This document shows, in pieces, positions 19,714 through 58,439 of a DNA stretch of 64,000 bases. Within the stretch, counting starts at the first letter, position 1. Each line of letters begins with the position of its first letter. Below the pieces are notes generated by a model. The model made no database searches. It was not told the DNA's origin and saw only the letters and a list, made by a program, of their open reading frames with translations. Source of the DNA: a virus (Duplodnaviria > Heunggongvirae > Uroviricota > Caudoviricetes); the IMG/VR virus record IMGVR_UViG_3300026549_002453. One strand, given 5' to 3'. The translations under genes and the position numbers were made by a program.

Positions 19714-21189
19714 ATGAAAGAAGTAAAAGTATTAGCAAAAGATGGTCAAGAATTAATGCCTACAACAATTGAAAAAGCGAATAAACTAATATCAAAGGGA
19801 GAAGCAGAGATAGTAGAAACTTCCCCTATGACAATTAGAATACTAAAGAATACTAAAAGATATAAGCAAGAAACTCTCGGCGATAGTTATGATTTGCCTA
19901 TAACTTATGAGGAAAAGATTCCTATTGGTGTAACATACATAAATGAAGAAGTAGATTTATATTGGTCTCTTAAAAAATACTCTGAGGAACATTGGAATGT
20001 AGTATACTCGAATACTGTACTTGTTGCTGATGATGACCTTAATCCGAGCTTCTTCATTCATAACACTATTGCGAGTCTTAATTATACACCTAACATTAGT
20101 ATGATATATACAAGTAAACTAAATGGTAGTAAATATGCTTTTGCGAGAAATGTAAGAGGTTCTGCAGGTAATGATGTATCCATAGCGGACACCTCAGAAA
20201 GAGTGAAAAGGCTAATGATGGACCGCTTTAAGTTGCTTGAACAACATCAGGTTAATAGAATTGAACTCTTAAACGGAACGGTACTTACTAACTATAAAAT
20301 GTTTAATAGAGAATGGAATTGGGATGCATTATTTACTGTTGTGGATAATACAGACGCGCCTGAAAAGGCTTTCGGTAAAATGGGTACAGTGTGGCACAAC
20401 AGAAATTATTATACTATAACAATTAAAGAAATGTATGAAAAACTAAATAATGGCGAAATAAAGTACTTTACACTTGCAACACCAGTAAAAGGGGTACCAA
20501 GGCACATATTTAAGTTTGATATTGAAAAAACAGAGGGTGAATACGCGCCCCACAAAGTCATTCTTATCATAGATGACCTCGATGAAATAATGCTTTGCGA
20601 TAATTATAAAGCGGTACATACAGTTAAAGATTCATTAAGTGCAATCGCCAGATTAGGTAGAGCTGCAGGAGTATATCTAATACTTAAGTGTCAAAGGGCA
20701 AGTGGGTCTACTGTGTCTACAGATTTATTAAATAATTGCCTAATTAAAATAAGGACAGGTAATTCTTATGTAGGTCAAGATATTTTTATGTTTGATAAAG
20801 AATTACCGCCATTAAAAGATAATAGAGCATATGTACAATTTTATGGTAGAGAAGTATATGAAATACAGTCATACAACCCTCACAATATAGAACCTTGGGA
20901 TGACGTGTTTGATATAACAAAGACATCTATTGCAGAAATTCAAGCAAACACGGGATATGCAAAAGACTTCGACTTAACAGTAAAACCAAGTAAAGAACTG
21001 TTAGATAAAATAGAGGAAAGTAAGAAAGAGTATGCAAAGTTTGTAGAAGAAACTGAGTATGTATATCTTTCAAAAGGAGAAGTAAAAGATAGATTACTAA
21101 AGAAAATAAATAGTTTGGAAAAAGAAATAAGCTCAATAAAAGAAGATATTGATATGTTGTTTTCTGAATTAGATAATATTATAGAATAG
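19714..21189 (+). CDS. FtsK/SpoIIIE-like protein with degenerate Walker A and an N-terminal PLMP-like domain
   Basis: C-terminal half matches the FtsK motor signature (ILIIDDLDE...IARLGRAAGVYLILKCQRASGSTVSTDLLNNCLIKIRTGN). The Walker A position reads GSAGNDVS, so the Lys is lost. The first ~45 aa align with the PLMP domain of the IscB at 57156. Confidence 0.65.
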   Translation: MKEVKVLAKDGQELMPTTIEKANKLISKGEAEIVETSPMTIRILKNTKRYKQETLGDSYDLPITYEEKIPIGVTYINEEVDLYWSLKKYSEEHWNVVYSNTVLVADDDLNPSFFIHNTIASLNYTPNISMIYTSKLNGSKYAFARNVRGSAGNDVSIADTSERVKRLMMDRFKLLEQHQVNRIELLNGTVLTNYKMFNREWNWDALFTVVDNTDAPEKAFGKMGTVWHNRNYYTITIKEMYEKLNNGEIKYFTLATPVKGVPRHIFKFDIEKTEGEYAPHKVILIIDDLDEIMLCDNYKAVHTVKDSLSAIARLGRAAGVYLILKCQRASGSTVSTDLLNNCLIKIRTGNSYVGQDIFMFDKELPPLKDNRAYVQFYGREVYEIQSYNPHNIEPWDDVFDITKTSIAEIQANTGYAKDFDLTVKPSKELLDKIEESKKEYAKFVEETEYVYLSKGEVKDRLLKKINSLEKEISSIKEDIDMLFSELDNIIE

Positions 21190-41387: not shown

Positions 41388-44300
41388 ATGAAGAAACTAC
41401 TAAGTTTACTATTATGTTTAACAATAGTATTTTCTTCTATGCCAATAGGCGTAATTGCAGAGGATACTCAAAGCGAGGAATCCTCTGCTTTTTCTCTTTC
41501 TGAACATCAAGAGGAATCTATGGAAGAAGAGACTGAAGAATCTGTAGAAGAAAACCAGGAAGAGAGTATCGAGGAAGAAGAACCTCAAGAGGAGGTAATT
41601 GAAGACACTATTCAGGAAGAGGCAGAAGAAAAACTTCCAGAAGAAAATATTCAAGTTAATCAAAATAGCGAAAATGATAAAATTGAAGAGGAAAATGAAC
41701 AAATTGAACTTGTTCAATTAGTAGAAAGTCAAGTAATAGACAATATCAAGATTACTGTAAATGGAGCTTTTGCTGAAGAAGGAACTCTTTCTATTCAAAA
41801 AGTAGAAAGTCAAGAACTTTCTGAAAATAATATAGCAGAAAGCCATAGTTTTGATATTAAAGTACTAAATAGCGACAATCAAGAAATTCAGCCTATAGAT
41901 AAAATTCATGTAAGTTTTGAATTCGAGTCTATTAGTGAGAATGTTGACATAGAAGTATATCACGAAGAAGAACAGTTAGAAGCAGAAACAAAAGAAAATG
42001 TTGTTACTGTGGAAAGTGATGGTTTTTCTATTTATACAGTGGAATTTACTTACAACGATAAAGAATATGTATTGGAAGGCGATACTTATGTAAAACTTTC
42101 TGATATTCTTGATTTTGTAGGTCTTGCAGGAGAAGTAGAATCTTGGGAAATTTCTAATAATGAGTTATTTACAGTCTTAAAAGGAGATGAATATGGAATT
42201 TCTTATGATATAGAGTATATTGATGAAATAGAATATGCTACTCCTATAGATAATCCTGATGGAAATATTCTTTATATGGCCGCTCTTCAAATGTTTGATA
42301 CGGAAGAATGGCTTGATATAACTATAGACGGAATTACATATCATATTATCGTAACAGATGATGCTTATGTTAATGGTCAGTCGCAAAATAAAATAACAGA
42401 TAACAGAGTAGTGCAAGGCGGTAATGAAACTAACTTTACTGCTACTATGCCTTTAGCAACTATCTTTATTGACGAAGATATAGTTAATATGGATGCGTAT
42501 AAGTTACTTCCGCCAACTATAAAAACACAAGAACAGTACGATGTGTATGTTGCAGAACACGGAGAAAATCCTTCATGGAATGTCGGGGATATCGATTATG
42601 ACAACCCCGAAAATACAGGAAAAATGGTGGCAAGACTTGTTTACGATACAACACAAACAGGTGCAAGAACTGGTATGAAAGTTAATACTTCGCCTGATGC
42701 TGGAGATGCATATGGTCAACTTTACTTTGATTTTGCAGATGGTGATTGGGATAAAGGAACTACTGCAAATAACCATGTAATAAATACTTGGAATGGTCCT
42801 GTTGTTGAATATAGGTTCATAAATGCTGCTGAAAGATTTAATACAGAAACTCAACAGTATGAAAGAATGGATGTCATTATTACATATTCTAATGTTAATA
42901 TTAGTATGCAATATAATTTTAACATGGATAATTATAGTAAGTTAACAAAATATGATATCTTAGATGCAAATAAGATTCAACCAAAATTATTTGCAAGCTC
43001 TGATTTAGGCGGAAACGCTAATGATAGAACAGGTCTTAAATTAGATGTCAATATTCAAGTAGTAGATAAGAATGATAATCGTATTCCTGGTTCATACTAT
43101 TTTCCATTGGTTGACGCGGATATTGGTAGAAGTGGAGCTTTTGGAAATCTTTATAAAGGAACAAATACTGAAAATAACTATTATTCAGAACAGTTCGTTC
43201 TTTTAGATAATTATGGTCAACCTACATCTGCTGGTGAATGGGAACAAAAAATTTGGATTCCTGGTGGAGACTATGATAAAACTAAAGCGGCTTCACAAAC
43301 AAGTAATATGCCGTACTTATCTAATATAGATAGTATTAATGGTAACTTGAGAATTAAACCTGGTGCAAGTTATAGTAGTATACCAGCTAATGGATATGAA
43401 CATCCAGTGACAGGAAACACTGGTAGAGACGAAGATTTTTACACAGGTTTTGCTACACTTGCTAATAACACTGACGGCGGAGTTAAGTTCCGTTATTGGG
43501 GAAATTCTGCATATAGAGCTACCCCAAGCGGTTCCGGTACGGTAACATCTTATGTCCTTGCAGGAACACAAAGAATTAACCATAAATTAGATGCTTCTTC
43601 TGATGAAGGAGGCACAATTTATACTACAACCACAGGTAACTCCGACGGTTCACTTTCGGGTGGCGAGCTTATGGGTAATAATTTAGTTAATTCTCCTCAC
43701 CAAATTTCTACTGCTACGGGTCAGCATACTACATACACAATGACACCAAAAGGTGGTTATAGAATTAAGAGTGTATATGTAAAGAGCGGAGATATTGATG
43801 TTCTCGAACAAGTAGAAGGTGGTAACGGAGCAACTTATAATGTTCCTATCAGCGATTTAACAAGCAAGGGTCATGGTATTTATACCTACACATTTACTGA
43901 TATTCAAGAAGATAGCTCCATCCATGTGGAGTGGGAAAAGACAGAGTTAAGTGTAACTAAAAATATAACTCCAGCAGACCCAAATGAAACCCACAAATTT
44001 AATTTCCAAATTAGACTATGGGATACAAGTACAGAAGACTCTATTTGGAGAGTGAGGGCAAGAAAATATAATGGTACTCTCATTAGGGATTATGGAATAG
44101 AAGACGGAACTCCTTATTATATGACTTATAGTGAGTCCCATAATGAGGAAGGTGAAATCGAGAGGTATACTGAGGTACCAGCTAGTGAAATCACAGATGA
44201 GACTAATCCTTCTGAGAATGGTTGGTATGAATCTGTGAGATATTTAGCACAAGCTGCAACACAAAATTTATATATGACAAGATATTTCTTAACAGAGGAT

Positions 44301-47300
44301 ACTGAACCTTATGTAGAAATAGATGATATTACAGGACTTGTTAATTCAAGAAAAACATACTATACAAGAGAAGTCGTAGAGGGAAATATTGAAAGATATT
44401 ATCAACATATTCTTGGTTACAATGAAGAAACCAATACGTGGACAAGTTATGATGTTCGTTCTGATGTAGATAATAGTGTTGTAGCCGATTTAGGTTTGAC
44501 CAATATAGACGAAACTCTTTCTGATAATTATCGCTTTGTCGAAGAGGAAGGGAAAGTATATTTAAAATCATCCTTTGATACAGAATCCCAGACTTACACA
44601 AAATATTTGATGTGGGTGTCTGATGACCAAATTACTAGAGATGTTTTAGTCGTCGGAAATGAAGAACTTTATCCAGAAGGAACCCCGTTTGAAGCAATGG
44701 GAGTATATAATGATTATATATATCTTTGGAAAGATGATGAAAGAGAGTGGTTGCCGTATAATAAGATTATAAGGTCTGAACATTATATGTATATATATCT
44801 GCAACTATGTTTTCCAAGCGCTTCTCATAATAAGTATAAATACGAAAGAGACACTAATAATCCAGTTCATTATGATTTTGTAAGTAACCCAGATGGATTT
44901 GCATTACAAGACGGATATACAAAGCTTACTGGTGAAACAGGTATGTATATTATCAATCTTCCTGCAGGTCAGTCTCCTGATTTAAGTGCTTTTGAAGGAA
45001 CAGATTGGGATTTACTTGTAAGTAGAGTAGGTGCAATTCAAGATGACTTTGATATGGATGCTGAATTTATAGCGAAAGGAGCTACTCCTGCTGCTGGTGC
45101 TAATACTTATACATTTAGTCTTGCTCCTGGTGAAACCATTGACTTTGAAGGTTGCGTCCCTATGGGTTGGAACTACGAAATTATAGAGACGGGTCTCGAA
45201 GGAACAATATGGCAAGAAGTAAGTCACACGACTAATGCTAATATATCAGATTTTGATGGGGAAGAAGCAGTAGAATTTGTCAATCAAAAAAGACTTTATG
45301 ATTTAGATATTACAAAAGAAACTGTAAATGATGCTCCAGGAACATTTGAGTTCAAGGTTAAAGTCTGGCATGAAAGTGCTGAAGAGTTTAAACCTACAAC
45401 TCTAGATGAATCGGGTGCAGGTGGAAACTGGTATGAGAACGACCTCCCTGTTAACCTTATAGAGGATGTTTTTTCTTGGGGGTCTTCTGAAACCATATCA
45501 GGTGAATTTAATAAACCTGTAAATTTAACTGTGCGTCCACATCCTTACGGTATAGAAAAGTTTATACCTGAGCCATGTGCAGTAAAATTATTTAAGGTGG
45601 CAGAAATTAATGATAATGGCACTATAGCTACAATTTCTCCATTTAATCCACCAAACGGGGATAGCACATTTGCAAATATCATTTCTGCTCTTGAGCCTAC
45701 TCAAATAAAGTATATGAGCAGTACTAATGACGCGGTATTTTTAGATGTAGAACCTGGTTTTTATCTTGTTGAATTTAATGAAAATTGGGTTTCTTCAGCT
45801 TGGATTTTACCTCAACAGGATTGGGATTCAGGTGAAATTGTAACGGACTCAATTCTTGATTGTGGAGCGGTGTACCAAATTATACAGCCAATCATAACTG
45901 AAATACCAATGGATTTATCTGAACAATTTGGTGAACCGGATAGTGATGGATATTATCATTTTACTCTATCAGAAGGAAGTGGTATAAAGATAGAAGATAT
46001 TCTTTATGGATACCATTATGAGGTTATAGAAGTACCTCAAGAAGGATGGACTCTTGAAAGTTCTGAAAACACTACAGGTATGATGAGTAAAGACACTACT
46101 GCTAAGTTTACTAACAAGAAAGATATTTCTTTAACGGTTAAAAAAGAAACTGATGCAGATACTGATGAAGAATTTGAGTTTGAAATAGTATTTCCAAGTA
46201 ATAATAGTACATATATATATGCATGGTCATATATAGAACCGATGCAATATGCACTATTACAGGAGGATGCACTGTCTTACTCATATCAGTCTGCTATTAT
46301 GGGTATAAATTTATATATTTGGAATAAATCAGGGTGGCCACCAGATAATTGGGCATATGAAAAGGTCAAAATTCCAGGGATTACTGCAACAGCATACCAA
46401 TATGGTACTGGCGACGAAATAGAAATTATAGATGCAGATTCTTTTTGGCTAAATGATTGGACACAAATAGAACTTTATGATGACAGTAATAATTTACTTA
46501 GAACTCATAATAGAGATGATTTACAGTTTAACTCACTTGATAGTGGAGAACAATTTATCTGTACGGAGTCTAATGGTGCATCTATAAATAGTGTTAATTT
46601 TATTAAAAATAATGAATCAGGTACACTTGATTTAACTGAACAAGATGATGTATATGTAGGAACATTTAAACTTAAAAAAGATGAAGAAATTAAGTTTACA
46701 GATATCCCATATAGCATTGAGTATGAAATATATGAAATAGACCAATTCGGAAATAGGGTTGCTATAGGAGACATTTTTAATACAAAATGGGAACTTAAAT
46801 CCAAAACTAATGATTCGGGTACTTTAACAGAAAACACAACTTCAGTATTTACCAATAAAATGAAAAAAGGTTCTATCAATGTAAAGAAAGAAACCAAAGG
46901 TGATGAAGCTGGTGAATTTAAGTTTAAAGTAAAAGTTTGGAAAGATGTGGTTGGATACGATTATAATAATTTAACACTTGTAACAGAAATGTATGAAGAA
47001 CCAAGTGATGATTTTTATAATTGGGGCGTTGGTTCGTATCGTGAATGTATTGATGAAGAGGCTGGTGAACTCATAAATCATGATATTTATTGGAACGGAA
47101 CTTGTGTCTCAGGGCTCGAATTGGCAACCTGCTCTTCTTCAGGAGCATGGGATTATATGGGGTATGAATATAATACTCACCCATTTACACAAGAATATTT
47201 ACACGGAGATTTTGAATTAATCCCGTTTTTAAAAACTTTTGTGTATTATATTGACGAAAACAACATTGAGCACAATACAGAAACGTACAACCACAAAGAT

Positions 47301-48476
47301 ACTGGCGAAAAAATTACAATCGACGGGATAGAATACCCATTAATCGTTAGTGGGTATGGACATGGAGCGGAGCACAATTATCAGTTGTTTATTCCGAAAT
47401 TAATAACAGAAAATATATCTTTGGATTTATCTGAACAGCTTGGAGAAATTGGTGACGATAGATATTATGAGTTCACTCTTAAAAATGGAGAAAACCTAAA
47501 AATAGAAGATATACCATTTGGACATAAATACGAAGTATACGAAGAAACTCCTGATGGTTGGGAGCTTGTATCTATTGACGAATTGACTCCAAGAGATAAA
47601 GCTGAGGGAACTATCGAGTCAGAAACTCCTTATGAACACACCTTCCTTAATGCCAAAAAGAAGACCCTCACATTTGGTAAAGAAGTAACTGGTAATATGG
47701 GAGATAAGACAAAAGAGTTTGAGTTTGAGGTGAAGGTTCATGGTTGGAAACTTCTCTTTGCAGATGAGGTAGGGCAGTATCTCGCAGCAAATAGTTATTT
47801 TGGTGGCACAGCGGGAATCTTATTTAAATATCCAGAACTTAATCAGCCGCCATTTGAAGCATATTTTGATAAGTTTGAGAGTGGAAACCTTAGAGATTTG
47901 AAGGAATATGTTGGAACACACACTTATTGTCGTTTTGATACTGGACTTGAGTATGATTCGCCAGGAGGCTATGAAGGTAATAGTTTGAATAATGGGGATG
48001 CTTATTGGCAAGAAATATCTGGACGCGGAGTAGGGAATATAGGAGAGTCACATTACTCTATAGATTATCCTCAACCTATTGAAGGGATTGAAAATACTAA
48101 ACAGGGTGAGGTATATTCCCCAGATTGGATAGATTTAGAAGAATATGGTGGTAAATATATAGGTAATGGCGTTTTCAAGTTTAATCTCAAACATGGTGAA
48201 ACAGTTACTATTCCAGACCTCCCTTATGGATACTCCTATGAAATCATAGAAAAGGATTACTCAGAAGAAGGATATGAACAAAAAGTAGATGGTGCAGCTG
48301 GAAGAAGGGTAAGTGGCACCTTAACAGAAGATAAAGAGCACAAATTTGAAAATAGACTTCAAGTATCGGTTCCGACAAAAATATCATTATATAATAATTA
48401 TATGTATATAATTATACTATTAATTAGTATAATGGGTTTATCAACTATAATTATTAGAAGAAAATTGAAAAAGTAA
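41388..48476 (+). CDS. giant (2362 aa) surface adhesin with multiple CnaB/SpaA-like repeat domains and a C-terminal membrane anchor
   Basis: Signal peptide; E-rich acidic N-region; recurring modules (e.g. TFGKEVTG...EFEFEVKV and YxYEIIE..EGW); C-terminal hydrophobic helix and RRKLKK tail. Confidence 0.8.
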   Translation: MKKLLSLLLCLTIVFSSMPIGVIAEDTQSEESSAFSLSEHQEESMEEETEESVEENQEESIEEEEPQEEVIEDTIQEEAEEKLPEENIQVNQNSENDKIEEENEQIELVQLVESQVIDNIKITVNGAFAEEGTLSIQKVESQELSENNIAESHSFDIKVLNSDNQEIQPIDKIHVSFEFESISENVDIEVYHEEEQLEAETKENVVTVESDGFSIYTVEFTYNDKEYVLEGDTYVKLSDILDFVGLAGEVESWEISNNELFTVLKGDEYGISYDIEYIDEIEYATPIDNPDGNILYMAALQMFDTEEWLDITIDGITYHIIVTDDAYVNGQSQNKITDNRVVQGGNETNFTATMPLATIFIDEDIVNMDAYKLLPPTIKTQEQYDVYVAEHGENPSWNVGDIDYDNPENTGKMVARLVYDTTQTGARTGMKVNTSPDAGDAYGQLYFDFADGDWDKGTTANNHVINTWNGPVVEYRFINAAERFNTETQQYERMDVIITYSNVNISMQYNFNMDNYSKLTKYDILDANKIQPKLFASSDLGGNANDRTGLKLDVNIQVVDKNDNRIPGSYYFPLVDADIGRSGAFGNLYKGTNTENNYYSEQFVLLDNYGQPTSAGEWEQKIWIPGGDYDKTKAASQTSNMPYLSNIDSINGNLRIKPGASYSSIPANGYEHPVTGNTGRDEDFYTGFATLANNTDGGVKFRYWGNSAYRATPSGSGTVTSYVLAGTQRINHKLDASSDEGGTIYTTTTGNSDGSLSGGELMGNNLVNSPHQISTATGQHTTYTMTPKGGYRIKSVYVKSGDIDVLEQVEGGNGATYNVPISDLTSKGHGIYTYTFTDIQEDSSIHVEWEKTELSVTKNITPADPNETHKFNFQIRLWDTSTEDSIWRVRARKYNGTLIRDYGIEDGTPYYMTYSESHNEEGEIERYTEVPASEITDETNPSENGWYESVRYLAQAATQNLYMTRYFLTEDTEPYVEIDDITGLVNSRKTYYTREVVEGNIERYYQHILGYNEETNTWTSYDVRSDVDNSVVADLGLTNIDETLSDNYRFVEEEGKVYLKSSFDTESQTYTKYLMWVSDDQITRDVLVVGNEELYPEGTPFEAMGVYNDYIYLWKDDEREWLPYNKIIRSEHYMYIYLQLCFPSASHNKYKYERDTNNPVHYDFVSNPDGFALQDGYTKLTGETGMYIINLPAGQSPDLSAFEGTDWDLLVSRVGAIQDDFDMDAEFIAKGATPAAGANTYTFSLAPGETIDFEGCVPMGWNYEIIETGLEGTIWQEVSHTTNANISDFDGEEAVEFVNQKRLYDLDITKETVNDAPGTFEFKVKVWHESAEEFKPTTLDESGAGGNWYENDLPVNLIEDVFSWGSSETISGEFNKPVNLTVRPHPYGIEKFIPEPCAVKLFKVAEINDNGTIATISPFNPPNGDSTFANIISALEPTQIKYMSSTNDAVFLDVEPGFYLVEFNENWVSSAWILPQQDWDSGEIVTDSILDCGAVYQIIQPIITEIPMDLSEQFGEPDSDGYYHFTLSEGSGIKIEDILYGYHYEVIEVPQEGWTLESSENTTGMMSKDTTAKFTNKKDISLTVKKETDADTDEEFEFEIVFPSNNSTYIYAWSYIEPMQYALLQEDALSYSYQSAIMGINLYIWNKSGWPPDNWAYEKVKIPGITATAYQYGTGDEIEIIDADSFWLNDWTQIELYDDSNNLLRTHNRDDLQFNSLDSGEQFICTESNGASINSVNFIKNNESGTLDLTEQDDVYVGTFKLKKDEEIKFTDIPYSIEYEIYEIDQFGNRVAIGDIFNTKWELKSKTNDSGTLTENTTSVFTNKMKKGSINVKKETKGDEAGEFKFKVKVWKDVVGYDYNNLTLVTEMYEEPSDDFYNWGVGSYRECIDEEAGELINHDIYWNGTCVSGLELATCSSSGAWDYMGYEYNTHPFTQEYLHGDFELIPFLKTFVYYIDENNIEHNTETYNHKDTGEKITIDGIEYPLIVSGYGHGAEHNYQLFIPKLITENISLDLSEQLGEIGDDRYYEFTLKNGENLKIEDIPFGHKYEVYEETPDGWELVSIDELTPRDKAEGTIESETPYEHTFLNAKKKTLTFGKEVTGNMGDKTKEFEFEVKVHGWKLLFADEVGQYLAANSYFGGTAGILFKYPELNQPPFEAYFDKFESGNLRDLKEYVGTHTYCRFDTGLEYDSPGGYEGNSLNNGDAYWQEISGRGVGNIGESHYSIDYPQPIEGIENTKQGEVYSPDWIDLEEYGGKYIGNGVFKFNLKHGETVTIPDLPYGYSYEIIEKDYSEEGYEQKVDGAAGRRVSGTLTEDKEHKFENRLQVSVPTKISLYNNYMYIIILLISIMGLSTIIIRRKLKK

Positions 48477-49304: not shown

Positions 49305-50087
49305 ATGTCATATATATCAAAATTAAAAACTAAATTTACATTATTCTATATAGAAAATAAGCAATTTAATAGAAGTGTATTAATTAATTCAATTCCACTA
49401 ATTAAGCCAAGTCTCATTATATGGGCTGGTATTTCTCTCTATTTACTAGTTCAGGCGGTGATGACTCAACTATTACTTGTTGATTTAGCCATAGCTCTTA
49501 GTGCTGTTGTCACTACAGTGTTATGCATTCCTTTTATACAAAAGGGTCCTTCTAAGACGAGTGAACCTGACCCAATACTTTATGGCGCAGGCATATCTCT
49601 GGGCATGATAATGATAGGGGCCTATTTATCACAAGTGATCAATGACCCTAATATGGTGGAGTATACCAATGCCCTTCAGAGGTTATCACCTGTAACCCTA
49701 GTTGTTAATTTACTAATTTTTGCCCCCGTATCGGAAGAACTCTTCTTTAGAGGTTTTTTATATACCAAACTCCAAGACCTCTCTATAGGTAAATATTTGG
49801 CTATGATAATAAGTTCAATAATGTTTGTAATAGTACACGGCACTTTTGTACATATCATCCCAGCCTTTATTATGGGTATAACTTTCTGCCTGGTATATGA
49901 GTATACAAACAACATATTGTATGGAATAGTGTGCCACAGTTTATATAACTTGCTAACCATACTACTAGGTTTTGTTATTAAGGAAGTAAACCTTTTAACC
50001 CTGGTGTTATCTATTATACTAGTAGGTTGGGTACTTTGGAAATTTTCTCAATATATGAGTGCCCCTAGGAAAGGAGAATTATGTTAG
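49305..50087 (+). CDS. CPBP-family intramembrane metalloprotease (CAAX protease/Abi-like)
   Basis: Motif 1 SEELFFRGF, motif 2 FVIVHG, motif 3 HSLYN; multiple TM helices. Confidence 0.75.
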   Translation: MSYISKLKTKFTLFYIENKQFNRSVLINSIPLIKPSLIIWAGISLYLLVQAVMTQLLLVDLAIALSAVVTTVLCIPFIQKGPSKTSEPDPILYGAGISLGMIMIGAYLSQVINDPNMVEYTNALQRLSPVTLVVNLLIFAPVSEELFFRGFLYTKLQDLSIGKYLAMIISSIMFVIVHGTFVHIIPAFIMGITFCLVYEYTNNILYGIVCHSLYNLLTILLGFVIKEVNLLTLVLSIILVGWVLWKFSQYMSAPRKGELC

Positions 50088-50323
50088 GGTACATATTATT
50101 AGGTTCTCTACTGTTGGTCGCAGTACTGTTTATATCTTTGGTTCAGGCTACAAGAGGGACTACTTTAAGAGGAAGGGAAGAATTATTAACTTCTGATGTA
50201 GTTGACGATGATACTGATGACCCTTATCTAGAGAACGATTGGCATGATATAGCATATAATGACAACGATTTTGCGGAGGATGACTACAATAGAGAAATAG
50301 AAATGTTTGATGATATGTTGTAA
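50081..50323 (+). CDS. small protein with one TM helix and an acidic tail
   Basis: AAGGAG RBS; overlaps the CPBP gene end. Confidence 0.4.
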   Translation: MLGYILLGSLLLVAVLFISLVQATRGTTLRGREELLTSDVVDDDTDDPYLENDWHDIAYNDNDFAEDDYNREIEMFDDML

Positions 50324-50416
50324 GTATTAACAACTTATATAAAACTATATACAAAAATATACTTTTGTTAATACTTTTTAATAAAATTTAATAGAAAGAT
50401 AGAAAGGAGGTACAAA

Positions 50417-51640
50417 TTGTTAGTACAAAGAACTGAACAACACATCATAGATAGACAGTCCAAGTGGTACAAAATGCTTAAGGAATTGTGTTATAAAGCT
50501 AAAAACACTTATAATCAAGGCAACTATATTATCAGGCAAGAATTTATTAAAAATGGTAAGTGGTTAAGGTATAATGACGTAGATAAACTGCTTAAGTATG
50601 ACCCTCAAAATGATAACTATTACTCTTGGTACGCTCATGCAAATCAACAAGTGCTTAGAAGACTTGATAAAAACTGGAAAAGCTTCTTCGCAAGTATAAA
50701 AGATTGGAAGAAAAATCCCTCTAAGTATAACGGCGTGCCAAAATTACCTAAGTATCTTAAAAAAGATGGTCTAACTGAATGGGGCATTACGGCGGGTGAA
50801 CTTAGGTTAGATTATACCGAAGGATTAATATATTTTCCTAAAGTGATGCAAGGTTTTAATATTCAACCACAATTTATCTATGATGAAAGATTTGTTCAAT
50901 TTAATCATTGTAGAATTGTTCCTAAGAATGATAGAATTATTGTCGAATTAATTTATACTATCTCAATCCCTGATTTTGTTAAAGAGCAAGGCTCTATAGG
51001 AAGTATTGACCTTGGTTTAGATAACTTTGTAACCTTTGTTGATAATCTTGGAAATCGTCCAATTATCATCAACGGTAAAGGTCTAAAGTCCTGTAATCAA
51101 TACTATAACAAGTTAATCGCTCAAATAAAATCAGAGCTTGATAAAAACGGTAATTCAGGATATAGTCACTTGCTATATTCAATTACAAACAAGCGAAATG
51201 ATAAAATTAAGCATTTCATGGATAAAGCATCTAAATATATTGTTGAAAATTGTCTTGATTTAGGAATAAAAACTATCGTGATTGGTAAAAATGATAATCA
51301 AAAACAAAATAGCAGAATGAAAAACTTTGTGCAAATTCCATATAACTTGTTTATTCAAAAACTTGCGTATAAGTGTCAAGAAGTAGGAATTGAACTAATT
51401 CTTACTGAAGAAAGTTATACAAGTGGTACAAGTTTTCTTGATGATGAACTACCAACTAAAGAAAATTATAATATTTCAAGAAGAGTAAAACGAGGGTTAT
51501 TCAAAAGCAATGACGGCAAGTTAATAAACGCAGATGTAAACGCTGCATACCAGACAATAAAAAAGGTATTCTCCGATGCTGTAAAGCCAGGAGATATAGG
51601 GTTAGTAATGAACCCAGTTCGGGTAAACTTTAGTTTCTGA
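50417..51640 (+). CDS. tnpB: TnpB-like (IS200/IS605 OrfB family) protein lacking the C-terminal zinc finger
   Basis: RuvC-I GSIDLGLDNF; YTSG segment; RuvC-III NADVNAAYQ. There are no CxxC pairs where the zinc finger should be. The residue expected for the RuvC-II Glu aligns to IVIGKND, so a Gly or Lys may sit there. GGAGG RBS, TTG start. Confidence 0.75.
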   Translation: MLVQRTEQHIIDRQSKWYKMLKELCYKAKNTYNQGNYIIRQEFIKNGKWLRYNDVDKLLKYDPQNDNYYSWYAHANQQVLRRLDKNWKSFFASIKDWKKNPSKYNGVPKLPKYLKKDGLTEWGITAGELRLDYTEGLIYFPKVMQGFNIQPQFIYDERFVQFNHCRIVPKNDRIIVELIYTISIPDFVKEQGSIGSIDLGLDNFVTFVDNLGNRPIIINGKGLKSCNQYYNKLIAQIKSELDKNGNSGYSHLLYSITNKRNDKIKHFMDKASKYIVENCLDLGIKTIVIGKNDNQKQNSRMKNFVQIPYNLFIQKLAYKCQEVGIELILTEESYTSGTSFLDDELPTKENYNISRRVKRGLFKSNDGKLINADVNAAYQTIKKVFSDAVKPGDIGLVMNPVRVNFSF

Positions 51641-51790
51641 GGTTGATAGAACAAAAAAGACTAAAAACTATAAACAAGGGTGTATTTTTGTATATGCTTT
51701 TATATAGTTGTTAACAGTTTTTATATTATATGTTGTAAAGTGTTGAAATTTTAATATTATAAAAAATTTATGGATGTATGTAAAAAATTA

Positions 51791-51819
51791 TTTACAGCAT
51801 CCATTTTTTTATATATAAT
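51791..51819 (+). promoter_or_regulatory. sigma-A promoter TTTACA-17-TATAAT with upstream A-tract, driving the MoxR-type ATPase gene
   Basis: Perfect consensus hexamers with a 17-nt spacer; near-duplicate of the promoter at 52981. Confidence 0.6.
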
Positions 51820-51871
51820 AATATTGTAATCAAATTGAAAATTATTTTAATCAAGTTAAGGAGAAATCAAA

Positions 51872-52831
51872 ATGAAAATTAACAAAAAGTACAACATTAA
51901 AAAAGAAAACAGAACTAATGACATTATTACTAATCTAATGACAGGGTACCGCCTCGAACGATACAGACCTGGGGACACTAGATACTCTGAACTTTACAGA
52001 ATCTTGAAGATTATGAAGAGACGTTCTATAACTGTTTCTTTGAAAAATAAACTTCTTGAAAGAGCTCTTGAAAGAATTTTTACTGACCCAGAAGACATTC
52101 AGAAGAGACTCATTCAGGTTGAACCTGAACCTGAGGTTGTTTATACTCAAACTTCTGTACCGGAATCTTCTTCCCCAGAGGTTGAGACTAATCCCGAGGA
52201 ACTAAAAAAGCGTACAGTTGAAAAACTTATGGACTTCTTTAGTGAATTTAACTTTTCACCCTCATTTAGATTTACCAATACTCTTGCTTTTGTAACAGAT
52301 GCTAATGAGTATGTAGCAAACTATTTTGCAATTCAAGACCATCAGTATGCTGGTGAGATTGCAGAAAAAATTAAGTCATTGGAGTTTACAGATATTATAT
52401 CCAAGATTAAGAACTTCAATAAACCTAGTAATGAAATTAATTCCCGTATGAAAATATATTATGGGGAACCCGGAACAGGTAAGACCACTCAGGCTATTAC
52501 AGAAGCCGACAGGTGCGTGGTGTGTAGTTCCGATATGCTTCCCACGGATCTCATGCAGAATTTTGCATTTAGTGAAGGTAAGGCAGAGTTCCAGAAGAGT
52601 GACCTTTGGAAGGCTATGGAGAATGGAGAAGTAATAGTTCTTGATGAAATTAATATGCTTCCATTTGAAAGTCTCCGCTTCCTTCAGGGTATTACAGATG
52701 GTAAAAACGAACTTGACTACAAGGGTTTCCATATTGAGATTAAGAAAGGTTTCCAGATTATTGGAACTATGAACCTCAATGTGGGGGGGAGCAGTAATGA
52801 GTGTTCCTTCACCTCTTGCAGACAGATGTAG
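51872..52831 (+). CDS. MoxR/AAA_5-type AAA+ ATPase, truncated at a poly-G tract
   Basis: Walker A YYGEPGTGKTT, Walker B VIVLDEINM, sensor-1 region IIGTMNLN. The ORF ends 13 codons after a G7 run; the -1 frame continues with PSPLADRCSEIVEF, which resembles the sensor-2 region. Confidence 0.75.
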   Translation: MKINKKYNIKKENRTNDIITNLMTGYRLERYRPGDTRYSELYRILKIMKRRSITVSLKNKLLERALERIFTDPEDIQKRLIQVEPEPEVVYTQTSVPESSSPEVETNPEELKKRTVEKLMDFFSEFNFSPSFRFTNTLAFVTDANEYVANYFAIQDHQYAGEIAEKIKSLEFTDIISKIKNFNKPSNEINSRMKIYYGEPGTGKTTQAITEADRCVVCSSDMLPTDLMQNFAFSEGKAEFQKSDLWKAMENGEVIVLDEINMLPFESLRFLQGITDGKNELDYKGFHIEIKKGFQIIGTMNLNVGGSSNECSFTSCRQM

Positions 52832-57155: not shown

Positions 57156-58439
57156 ATGTTTGTATATGTTTTAGATAGTAATGGACAACCACTTATGCCA
57201 ACATCTCGTTTTGGCAAGGTTCGTAGATTACTTAATTTAAAACAAGCTAAAGTAGTACGGAGTTGTCCATTCACTATACAGTTGTTGTATGAACCTAAAA
57301 CAACTGTAGTACAAGAAATTGTCTTAGGAGTAGATACAGGTTCAAAACGTATTGGCACAGCTTGTGTTGCTAATGACAAAGTTCTATATCAATCACAGAT
57401 TGAATTGAGAACTGATATCAAATCTAAAATGGACAGTCGTAGACAAGCTCGTAGGTTTAGACGAAATCGTAAAACTAGATACAGAAAAGCAAGATTCCTA
57501 AACAGAGCTAATTCTACAAAGAAAGACAGATTACCACCAAGTGTAAGACATAAGGTACAAGCTCACATTGATGAGGTAGAATTTTGTAAGAAAATACTAC
57601 CAATTTCAAAAATTGTACTTGAGGTAAGTCAATTTGATACCCACTTAATGAAAAATCCTGCATTAATAAGCGAAAAATTAAAACATTGGGCTTATCAAAA
57701 GGGTTTCAATTATGAATTTAGTTCAAGAAGAGAAGCAGTGTTACACAGAGATAACTATACTTGTCAAATATGTGGTAAAAAACATACAAAATTAGAAGTA
57801 CATCATATCATTTATAGAAGTCAAGGTGGTACGGATGATGAGGATAATCTCATAACTCTATGTAAAGATTGTCATGATGCACTACACGATGGACAAATAA
57901 TATTGACTAAAAAACCTCGTAGGATGAATCTTAAACATGCAACTCACATGAGCATTATTAGAAGTCAATTACTTAAAGTCTATCCTGAAGCTACAGAAAC
58001 ATTTGGATTTGTAACTAAAGAGAATAGAAATCATCTTGATTTGCCAAAGGACCACTATATAGATGCTTGTGTAATAGCATCAGGTGGAGAAGGGTTTAAA
58101 CTTAATAATGAGATATTTTACAAAAGAAGAGTAGCTTATGCAGATAGAAAACTATGTAGAGGTATTCGAGGAGAAGAAAGAATACCAACGGGTAAAATAC
58201 ATGGTTTTAAGAGATATGACAAAGTTAGATATTTTAACAAAGAGTATTTTATCAAGGGCAGAATGAGTAATGGATATGTAGTATTGATGGACATATTTAA
58301 TAATAAGGTAGATTTTAGTTACATGCCAAAAGGCATGAAAACGCCTAAATTGGCAAATTGTAAAAGATTAAATTCAAGAAAAAGTGTAATAGTGGATAGG
58401 CAAGAAAGGTATGTAATTTTCTTGCCTAAGATTGTATAA
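57156..58439 (+). CDS. iscB: IscB, OMEGA-system RNA-guided nuclease (PLMP, split RuvC, HNH)
   Basis: PLMP domain with the literal PLMP motif; RuvC-I VLGVDTGSKRIG; Arg-rich bridge helix RRQARRFRRNRKTRYRKARF; HNH CQICGKK...HHIIYRSQGG...DNLITLCKDCHDALH; RuvC-III HYIDACVIASGG. Confidence 0.85.
   Translation: MFVYVLDSNGQPLMPTSRFGKVRRLLNLKQAKVVRSCPFTIQLLYEPKTTVVQEIVLGVDTGSKRIGTACVANDKVLYQSQIELRTDIKSKMDSRRQARRFRRNRKTRYRKARFLNRANSTKKDRLPPSVRHKVQAHIDEVEFCKKILPISKIVLEVSQFDTHLMKNPALISEKLKHWAYQKGFNYEFSSRREAVLHRDNYTCQICGKKHTKLEVHHIIYRSQGGTDDEDNLITLCKDCHDALHDGQIILTKKPRRMNLKHATHMSIIRSQLLKVYPEATETFGFVTKENRNHLDLPKDHYIDACVIASGGEGFKLNNEIFYKRRVAYADRKLCRGIRGEERIPTGKIHGFKRYDKVRYFNKEYFIKGRMSNGYVVLMDIFNNKVDFSYMPKGMKTPKLANCKRLNSRKSVIVDRQERYVIFLPKIV

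Follow-up and report, generated by a model that had tools for sequence, protein, structure and literature searches.

The locus analysed here is a tnpB gene together with the small mobile element that carries it, located in a viral DNA stretch of 64,000 nucleotides (nt) (Caudoviricetes; IMG/VR record IMGVR_UViG_3300026549_002453) that is referred to as the window and to which all coordinates apply (Table 1). The gene is an intact and real open reading frame (ORF) of 407 amino acids (aa), and its homologs have ATG at the position of its TTG start. The product matched the NCBIfam model guided_TnpB (NF040570) over residues 18-379 with 151.7 bits (E-value 3e-44; model cutoff 100 bits), the Pfam families OrfB_IS605 (PF01385; 1e-16) and Cas12f1-like TNB domain (PF07282; 2e-9), both above cutoff, and the transposase family PHROG 506. 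The TnpB motifs named in a preliminary description, which was made from the letters of the DNA alone, are all present (GSIDLGL at residues 195-201, IVIGKND at 287-293, TEESYTSG, containing YTSG, at 330-337, and NADVNAAYQ at 371-379), and the C-terminus containing RuvC-III is complete, leaving the protein at full length. An AlphaFold2 model calculated with 47 homologs reached a predicted local distance difference test (pLDDT) score of 85.3 and a predicted template modelling (pTM) score of 0.80. In Foldseek the top matches of this model were AsCas12f, ISFba1 TnpB, ISDra2 TnpB and Fanzor2, with E-values of 1e-17 to 1e-12 to Cas12f and TnpB structures. Sequence searches of the PDB with the single protein as query gave weak Cas12f matches, and the ISDra2 and ISFba1 proteins were reached by profile search. 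The identical protein was recovered from several samples.

For the analysis of the active site, the protein was aligned with characterised nucleases and with 114 full-length homologs of 49-100% identity. In profile and sequence alignments to AsCas12f, G290 fell on the catalytic glutamate of RuvC-II (TIVIG against TIQME), whereas the alignment to ISDra2 TnpB placed N292, and not G290, on E278. Since neither G290 nor N292 is acidic and the nearby D293 is variable (D, E, K, N or G), the canonical RuvC-II glutamate is absent. D198, G290, E332 and D373 are each invariant in 114 of 114 homologs, and the signature D198/G290/N292/E332/S339/D342/D373 was present in 219 of 226 loci. The identities of these loci are as low as 35%, and their sources are phage contigs, metagenomes, Bacillota, Cyanobacteria and Chloroflexota. 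E332 is located 42 residues past G290 in the pattern E332-x6-S339; in the AsCas12f alignment it falls on the proline of the '(D)PxYTSxxC' motif, six residues ahead of the first zinc finger cysteine, and S339 falls on that cysteine. The alternative glutamate (Ealt) has been defined by Yoon et al. as E-x6-CxxC (PMC10711439), and large RIIr clades in which the RuvC-II glutamate is changed to glycine, offset by a glutamate on strand beta-5 instead of beta-4, have been described by Altae-Tran et al. (PMC10691335). Enzymes with Ealt are active nucleases, as TvTnpB performs RNA-guided DNA cleavage specific for its transposon-adjacent motif (TAM) and the E467A variant of ApmFanzor is dead (PMC10530073). 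Because its position fits the published definition, E332 was read as this alternative glutamate (Ealt, TnpB2 or RIIr). In the AlphaFold2 model, a strand (284-291) ends at G290/K291 and is followed by a helix (309-323) and a second strand (326-331) that leads directly into E332, and this strand order agrees with the relocation from beta-4 to beta-5 (PMC10691335). E332 is thus predicted to take over the role of the missing glutamate in a D198-E332-D373 triad. The suspicion raised in the preliminary description that the RuvC-II site is altered was borne out for the canonical residue, but a dead site is not supported. The alignment to TnpB and Cas12 profiles proposed there gave no canonical glutamate and no cryptic finger, but a conserved glutamate in a relocated position.

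The second peculiarity of the protein, likewise indicated in the preliminary description, is the lack of cysteines in the zinc finger region. Cysteines occur only at residues 25, 165, 226, 279 and 320 and no histidine follows residue 266, so that residues 321-407 contain neither and no zinc ligands are available between YTS and NAD; a cryptic zinc finger was not found in the segment. The segment is free of cysteine in 110 of the 114 homologs, where the usual CxxC...CxxC arrangement is replaced by the conserved motif E-S-Y-T-S-G-T-S-F-L-D-x-E-x-P ... R-R-x-x-R-G-L-F-x-S-x-x-G-x-x-I-N-A-D-x-N, and in the alignments S339 and S364 fall on cysteine positions of AsCas12f. Judged by these homologs, the loss of the finger is a conserved trait of the lineage and not a sign of decay. 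The short beta-hairpin strands of the finger segment are kept in the AlphaFold2 model, though with lower confidence (pLDDT 60-73). The fold of the zinc-ribbon region is presumably held without zinc, and the protein may be independent of zinc altogether. Loss of the finger has already been recorded in surveys, in which the C4 zinc finger is described as typical of TnpB and as absent from some large branches (PMC10691335).

The search of the gene's 3′-end and the downstream DNA for a guide RNA, as suggested in the preliminary description, led to a covarying scaffold. Folding of positions 51593-51729 (137 nt) gave three consecutive stem-loops (SL1 to SL3) and a free 7-nt tail with a z-score of -3.0, and a second fold calculation gave -3.5. 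With RNAalifold and 28 diverse relatives, SL1 and SL2 were recovered, 11 of their 14 pairs showing compensatory changes. In addition, the loop of SL1 can pair with the last six nucleotides of the element to form a pseudoknot, the partners being GUAAUG and (C/U)AUUAU in the subgroup of the window element and GGGUUA and UAACCU, GCGUUA and UAACGU, or GUGUUA and UAACAU in other relatives. For the evaluation of this pairing, the right ends were located by the terminal motif near the ends defined by BLAST, and the covarying position was left free. All six pairs are formed in 67 of 68 elements, a level that was reached in none of 2000 permutations of the tails among elements. In a MAFFT alignment, 96% of the cells of SL1, SL2 and the pseudoknot were paired, compared with 35-48% when the partners were slid by 1-3 columns; for the pseudoknot helix itself the figure was 99.4%, four of its six pairs showed compensatory changes, and none of 500 shuffles matched any of these measures. 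The pseudoknot covaries with codons inside tnpB. Three stem-loops and a pseudoknot between SL1 (the 'nexus') and the 3′-end have been reported as universal for the omega-RNAs of IS605 and IS607 TnpB proteins (PMC10690162; for ISXfa1 in PMC10711439), and the 3′-end of the element is accordingly predicted, with the support of covariation, to encode an omega-RNA of known architecture. In the window copy, none of the helices is disrupted, nor is the pseudoknot. An Rfam search of positions 49800-52300 gave nothing at the gathering threshold and nothing at E-values up to 5, including RAGATH-18 and the group I intron; in the absence of such matches, an IStron or a RAGATH-18 RNA was rejected.

Since conservation among relatives stops at the last nucleotide of the scaffold, the guide should begin directly 3′ of it, with a probable length of about 16 nt. 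The preliminary description had proposed to look for a guide-like segment matching a promoter elsewhere, and such a match did not emerge, as the window contains no further site that fits the 16-mer with three mismatches or fewer.

The boundaries of the element were derived from its relatives. Those with 78-84% aa identity are located in unrelated gene neighbourhoods, and because DNA similarity to relatives in such contexts is limited to the interval given in Table 1, the element is a discrete mobile unit of about 1.42 kb. The junctions are resolved to ±2 nt, with AT being palindromic. At seven related left junctions T(A/G)AT or ATAT directly precedes the conserved left end (LE); the right end (RE) closes with TTAT, and the element of the window and those of six relatives are bordered by AT on either side. 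The perfect 12-bp inverted repeat noted earlier upstream of the gene is present in the LE, and its hairpin folds with a z-score of -2.7. As a separate observation, positions 50336-50380 in the LE and 51662-51706 in the RE are 84% complementary over 45 nt and thus constitute an inverted repeat in subterminal position. The RE sequence may hence have two functions, one as DNA recognised by the transposase and one as an RNA stem-loop (SL3). The downstream hairpin with a T-run, also described before, is present as well (-13.7 kcal/mol, z-score -3.9) but lies about 40 nt beyond the end of the element and is not conserved in the flanks of the relatives.

Table 1. Coordinates of the tnpB element, its parts and its flanks in the 64,000-nt window (TAM, transposon-adjacent motif; RBS, ribosome binding site)
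Feature	Position	Strand	Remarks
Putative TAM TGAT	50311-50314	+	its final AT (50313-50314) is a candidate for the crossover dinucleotide at the left junction
Mobile element	~50313-51729	+	~1.42 kb; DNA similarity to relatives confined to it
LE	50313-50416	+	similarity to relatives starts here; holds hairpin and RBS
Exact 11-nt direct repeat ATATGTTGTAA	left 50313-50323, right 51728-51738	+	
LE inverted repeat	50322-50333 / 50365-50376	+	12-bp perfect stem, hairpin 50322-50376
RBS AAGGAGG	50404-50410	+	strong; upstream of the tnpB TTG start
tnpB coding sequence	50417-51640	+	407 aa, TTG start
D198 codon (RuvC-I)	51008-51010	+	
G290 codon (canonical RuvC-II position)	51284-51286	+	
E332 codon (alternative glutamate)	51410-51412	+	
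Zinc-finger-equivalent segment S339-A372	51431-51532	+	free of cysteine
D373 codon (RuvC-III)	51533-51535	+	
Predicted omega-RNA scaffold	51599-51729	+	ends at the RE boundary 51729
SL1	51599-51615	+	within the tnpB coding sequence
SL2	51617-51652	+	spans the tnpB stop codon
SL3	51656-51722	+	corresponds to the RE hairpin
Predicted pseudoknot	51605-51610 / 51724-51729	+	SL1 loop (GUAAUG) pairs with 3′ tail (UAUUAU)
Predicted guide	51730-51745	+	first ~16 nt of the right flank (ATGTTGTAAAGTGTTG)
Terminator-like hairpin and T-run	51770-51811	+	outside the element; hairpin 51770-51804, T-run 51805-51811
Promoter-like site for next gene	51791-51819	+	from promoter scan
Predicted empty-site junction			left flank ...TTTGATGAT joined to right flank ATGTTGTAAAGTG

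All ORFs within 1.2 kb of tnpB were clustered for about 226 loci. One neighbour dominated and was found in 61 loci, namely an ORF of about 200 aa that runs in the direction of tnpB up to the start of this gene and combines a helix-turn-helix (HTH) domain of the MerR type with a resolvase domain, as in the serine recombinase TnpA of IS607; a cluster of Y1/HUH neighbours was not present among these loci. As a serine recombinase TnpA abuts tnpB in the 61 loci and no Y1/HUH cluster was found, the family was assigned to the IS607 type. A tblastn search of the 64-kb window with the TnpA of the family gave no match, in agreement with the earlier remark that no TnpA is nearby; a second tnpB and solo ends are absent from the window as well. 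By its gene content, the window copy is a TnpA-less derivative of the IS607 family, and its mobilisation would depend on a TnpA acting in trans. Members of the family are frequent among IMG/VR contigs of 100-340 kb, occur in rumen, gut and digester metagenomes, and are present, often in several copies, in genomes of Lachnospiraceae, Clostridia, Anoxybacillus/Parageobacillus and Nostocales. The same insertion as in the window is present in four other assemblies.

Two observations on the insertion sites of relatives were made in addition. On a related contig of about 250 kb (L004/L010/L075), a direct repeat of about 24 nt (ATAGACCAAATyGTTTTTCAAT) is located left of the LE and about 45 nt right of the RE; its right copy directly precedes the RBS of the next gene, and the RE of this element lacks the usual ATTAT end. 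In L005/L006/L007 and L009, the element is found beside sequences that resemble the ends of tRNA genes, such as the GGTTCGAGTCC...CCA-like 3′-ends located directly upstream, which suggests that these copies were inserted within tRNA arrays.

From these results we conclude with good confidence that the window gene is an intact TnpB with an omega-RNA that belongs to the IS607 family and is probably active with the Ealt arrangement, catalytic activity being deduced from the conserved residues. The element is thus probably a further Ealt TnpB of an already described class and not a nuclease-dead regulator. According to the mechanism that may be proposed for it, TnpB would be an RNA-guided DNA endonuclease of the RuvC type whose active site is rearranged. 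At its 3′-end, over at least the scaffold region, the transcript would fold into the three stem-loops, the first loop pairing with the six nucleotides that close the element, and read-through into the flank would supply the guide. The resulting ribonucleoprotein would cut the empty site, consisting of the TAM (probably TGAT) and the flank, in a copy that lacks the element, as in the characterised IS605 and IS607 systems, and repair after the cut might copy the element back, giving it a presumed role in homing or retention. Transposition itself would need a serine recombinase TnpA supplied in trans.

Comparison with known systems places the protein next to the TnpB proteins with rearranged RuvC-II (TnpB2, e.g., TvTnpB of Thermoplasma volcanium, and RIIr-5 with glutamate changed to glycine), with which it shares the glycine at the canonical position, the alternative glutamate on the next strand about 45 residues downstream (42 here), the NADxN motif of RuvC-III, mobility and a 3′ omega-RNA (PMC10691335, PMC10530073). 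By the published definitions of Ealt the glutamate stands six residues ahead of CxxC, whereas here that position is a serine and the whole C4 finger is gone, and TvTnpB is archaeal and associated with Y1, unlike the present clade of Bacillota, phages and cyanobacteria with its serine recombinase. The Ealt site and the IS607 ancestry are shared with Fanzor1, Fanzor2 and the cyanobacterial 'pro-Fanzor' IS607 TnpB proteins (Foldseek match to Fanzor2 structure 9b0l with a TM-score of 0.62). In contrast to those, RuvC-I reads D198-L-G200, with L, I or M at position 199 in 114 of 114 homologs, instead of D-P-G (PMC10711439), the zinc finger is absent and the hosts are prokaryotes or phages. As in CboIStron and ISXfa1, a serine recombinase TnpA lies directly upstream of tnpB in full elements, the RNA has three stem-loops and the SL1 ('nexus') pseudoknot, what may be the same dinucleotide is located at both junctions, and the scaffold end resembles but differs from the TAM (PMC10690162, PMC10711439), which in CboIStron is TGGG against a scaffold end of UCGG (PMC10690162). 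Unlike in CboIStron, there is no group I intron, the LE is short, with only about 100 nt ahead of the start codon, A/T-rich sequence (TRAT) takes the place of the G-rich one (TGGG) in the ends and the putative TAM, and the window copy has no TnpA. The TnpB of ISFba1 (PDB 8iaz) is an IS607-family protein from Firmicutes that is comparable in size (387 aa) and was matched in structure; it differs by a canonical E290 (D194/E290/D371), by a right end element RNA (reRNA) with RAGATH-18 located wholly downstream of the gene, which Rfam does not find here, and by its TAM AGGAG (PMC11061315). With ISDra2 TnpB (PDB 8exa/8h1j) the fold (TM-score ~0.6-0.7 on the target) and an omega-RNA that overlaps the 3′-end of the gene and forms a pseudoknot are shared, whereas in ISDra2 the glutamate is the canonical E278, a C4 zinc finger is present, RuvC-III reads DRDxN and the TnpA is of the Y1 type.

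The preliminary description had offered two options, a nuclease-dead RNA-guided binder of the TldR type and an unusual active TnpB. In the first case, cleavage would have been inactivated by the loss of the canonical glutamate and the finger, and the ribonucleoprotein would repress or regulate a target gene. TldR proteins share the TnpB fold and have relatives in phages, and G290 in place of the canonical glutamate, the missing finger cysteines, the lack of a TnpA in the window and one relative (L005/L006) located about 1 kb upstream of a SpoIIE gene would be in line with such a regulator. TldRs have, however, a truncated or mutated RuvC (PMC10705468), having lost RuvC residues or the C-terminus, and are immobile, tied to fliC or oppF and equipped with guides that match promoters (PMC10705468, PMC10691335), whereas D198, E332 and D373 are invariant here, E332 occupies the validated Ealt position and RuvC-III and the C-terminus are complete. 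Moreover, neighbours vary between loci with the serine recombinase as the sole recurrent one and without a conserved host-gene partner, the same element ends recur in unrelated contexts next to a covarying omega-RNA, the guide sequence fits no other site in the window, and the ratio of nonsynonymous to synonymous substitution rates (dN/dS) of the window gene against relatives is 0.16-0.20. A dead regulator is hence very improbable, and the evidence favours the option of an active TnpB, with activity as a prediction and within a class that has been described. An exaptation of the SpoIIE-TnpB kind was rejected on its own grounds, as a single relative is located near SpoIIE and the inactivated site and lid insertion of the published clade were not seen here (PMC10691335).

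The element might instead be a decaying relic that was stranded without its transposase and is on the way to a pseudogene. The dN/dS value, higher than that among relatives, the TTG start against ATG in relatives and the absence of TnpA, a second copy and solo ends in the 64 kb would be expected in that case. Against this speak an intact ORF of 407 aa with all conserved residues, the undamaged omega-RNA helices and pseudoknot, a dN/dS well under 1, the strong RBS and the identical protein in several samples, so that decay is regarded as improbable, though slightly less so than a dead regulator. Imperfect palindromes that resemble each other at both ends would also suit an IS200/IS605-type (IS1341-like) element that moves as single-stranded DNA by means of a Y1 HUH TnpA reading the LE and RE hairpins. 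This reading was dropped after the clustering of neighbours, as no cluster similar to Y1 was found in the approximately 226 loci and 61 of them have the serine recombinase arranged end-to-start with tnpB; furthermore, the hairpin at the RE belongs, as SL3, to the covarying omega-RNA, and the apparently identical dinucleotide AT at both junctions would be expected for IS607. There is very little chance that the element moves in this way.

Several points weigh against the assignment as an active and mobile Ealt TnpB of the IS607 family. The TAM of the window element is tentatively T(A/G)AT, probably TGAT, as read from only seven junctions. The window copy is only presumably still mobile, as the 64 kb hold no TnpA and an empty site was not found: the 24-mer of the left flank is absent from IMG/VR, and exact-protein look-ups of both neighbouring genes returned occupied loci only. 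The clustering of D198, E332 and D373 in space is a prediction from the alignments and strand order. The window gene evolves somewhat faster than its relatives (0.16-0.20 against 0.06-0.10 among the relatives), the loss of the zinc finger could impair or alter activity, and an experimental test of an enzyme of this lineage without the finger was not found in the literature. Finally, the two junctions carry an exact direct repeat of 11 nt for which the standard IS607 model does not account.

The left copy of this repeat consists of the left AT and the first nine bases of the element, and it provides the upstream ORF (50081-50323, 80 aa, ending with ..FDDML*) with its final three codons and its stop. 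The right copy consists of the right AT and the first nine bases of the flank, which are those of the predicted guide. The repeat thereby restores the C-terminus of the upstream ORF and equals the seed of the predicted guide. In relatives, no such junction repeat was found; the nine LE bases differ between their copies without matching their own flanks. Because two relatives (L052 and L082) share these bases in unrelated contexts, they are element DNA. A target-site duplication was rejected as the cause since relatives have no repeat and the nine bases belong to the element. Candidate causes are an insertion into a target that resembled the circle junction, and selection for an insertion that preserves the ORF. 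A wider and rather doubtful reading would join both peculiarities, so that the Ealt lineage without zinc finger would be a distinct type of zinc-independent miniature nuclease and the 11-nt repeat would record an unrecognised mode of insertion that is target-templated or ORF-preserving. If this were true, the lineage, which is abundant among Bacillota of gut and rumen, in the large phages or plasmids of these bacteria and in cyanobacteria, would have properties unlike those of all characterised TnpB proteins, for example by lacking collateral activity, by using an A/T-rich TAM and by keeping its TNB domain together without metal.

Further features were observed elsewhere in the window. About 5 kb downstream of the tnpB element, a HEARO RNA (Rfam RF02033; 56806-57053, plus strand) scored 83.9 bits against a gathering score of 83, and the ORF directly after it (57156-58439, plus strand; 427 aa) contains RRXRR (1e-58) and HNH domains; together they represent a second element of the OMEGA type, an IscB with its omega-RNA. 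An odd pairing of a short N-terminal RRXRR match (residues 4-53, E-value 1e-7) and an FtsK/SpoIIIE ATPase domain is found in the ORF at 19714-21189 (plus strand; 491 aa), and the ORF at 41388-48476 (plus strand) encodes a surface protein of 2362 aa that has acidic repeats and is anchored in the membrane by its C-terminus. Gene-like ORFs of 120 aa or more are found on the plus strand only. Matches to PHROG and Pfam families comprise a methyltransferase, a UvsX-like recombinase, an FtsK-like protein, DUF7487, an M23 and NlpC/P60 hydrolase and AAA, and are not diagnostic of the type of replicon, which may be a jumbo phage or a conjugative megaplasmid. The same replicon is present elsewhere as a contig of 253,880 bp, and blastn against phage records gave matches only inside tnpB.

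For annotation, these results mean that the lack of the canonical RuvC-II glutamate and of the CxxC pairs does not equal a dead TnpB, and that a glutamate in the E-x6 position ahead of the former first cysteine and a covarying omega-RNA are features to be checked before a protein is called a TldR-like regulator. The biological value is modest and consists in a large lineage of Bacillota, phages and cyanobacteria that combines the Ealt site with complete loss of the zinc finger and at the same time keeps IS607 TnpA partners and the canonical guide RNA with three stem-loops and a pseudoknot. If active, its enzymes would be compact and possibly metal-finger-independent editors with an A/T-rich TAM.

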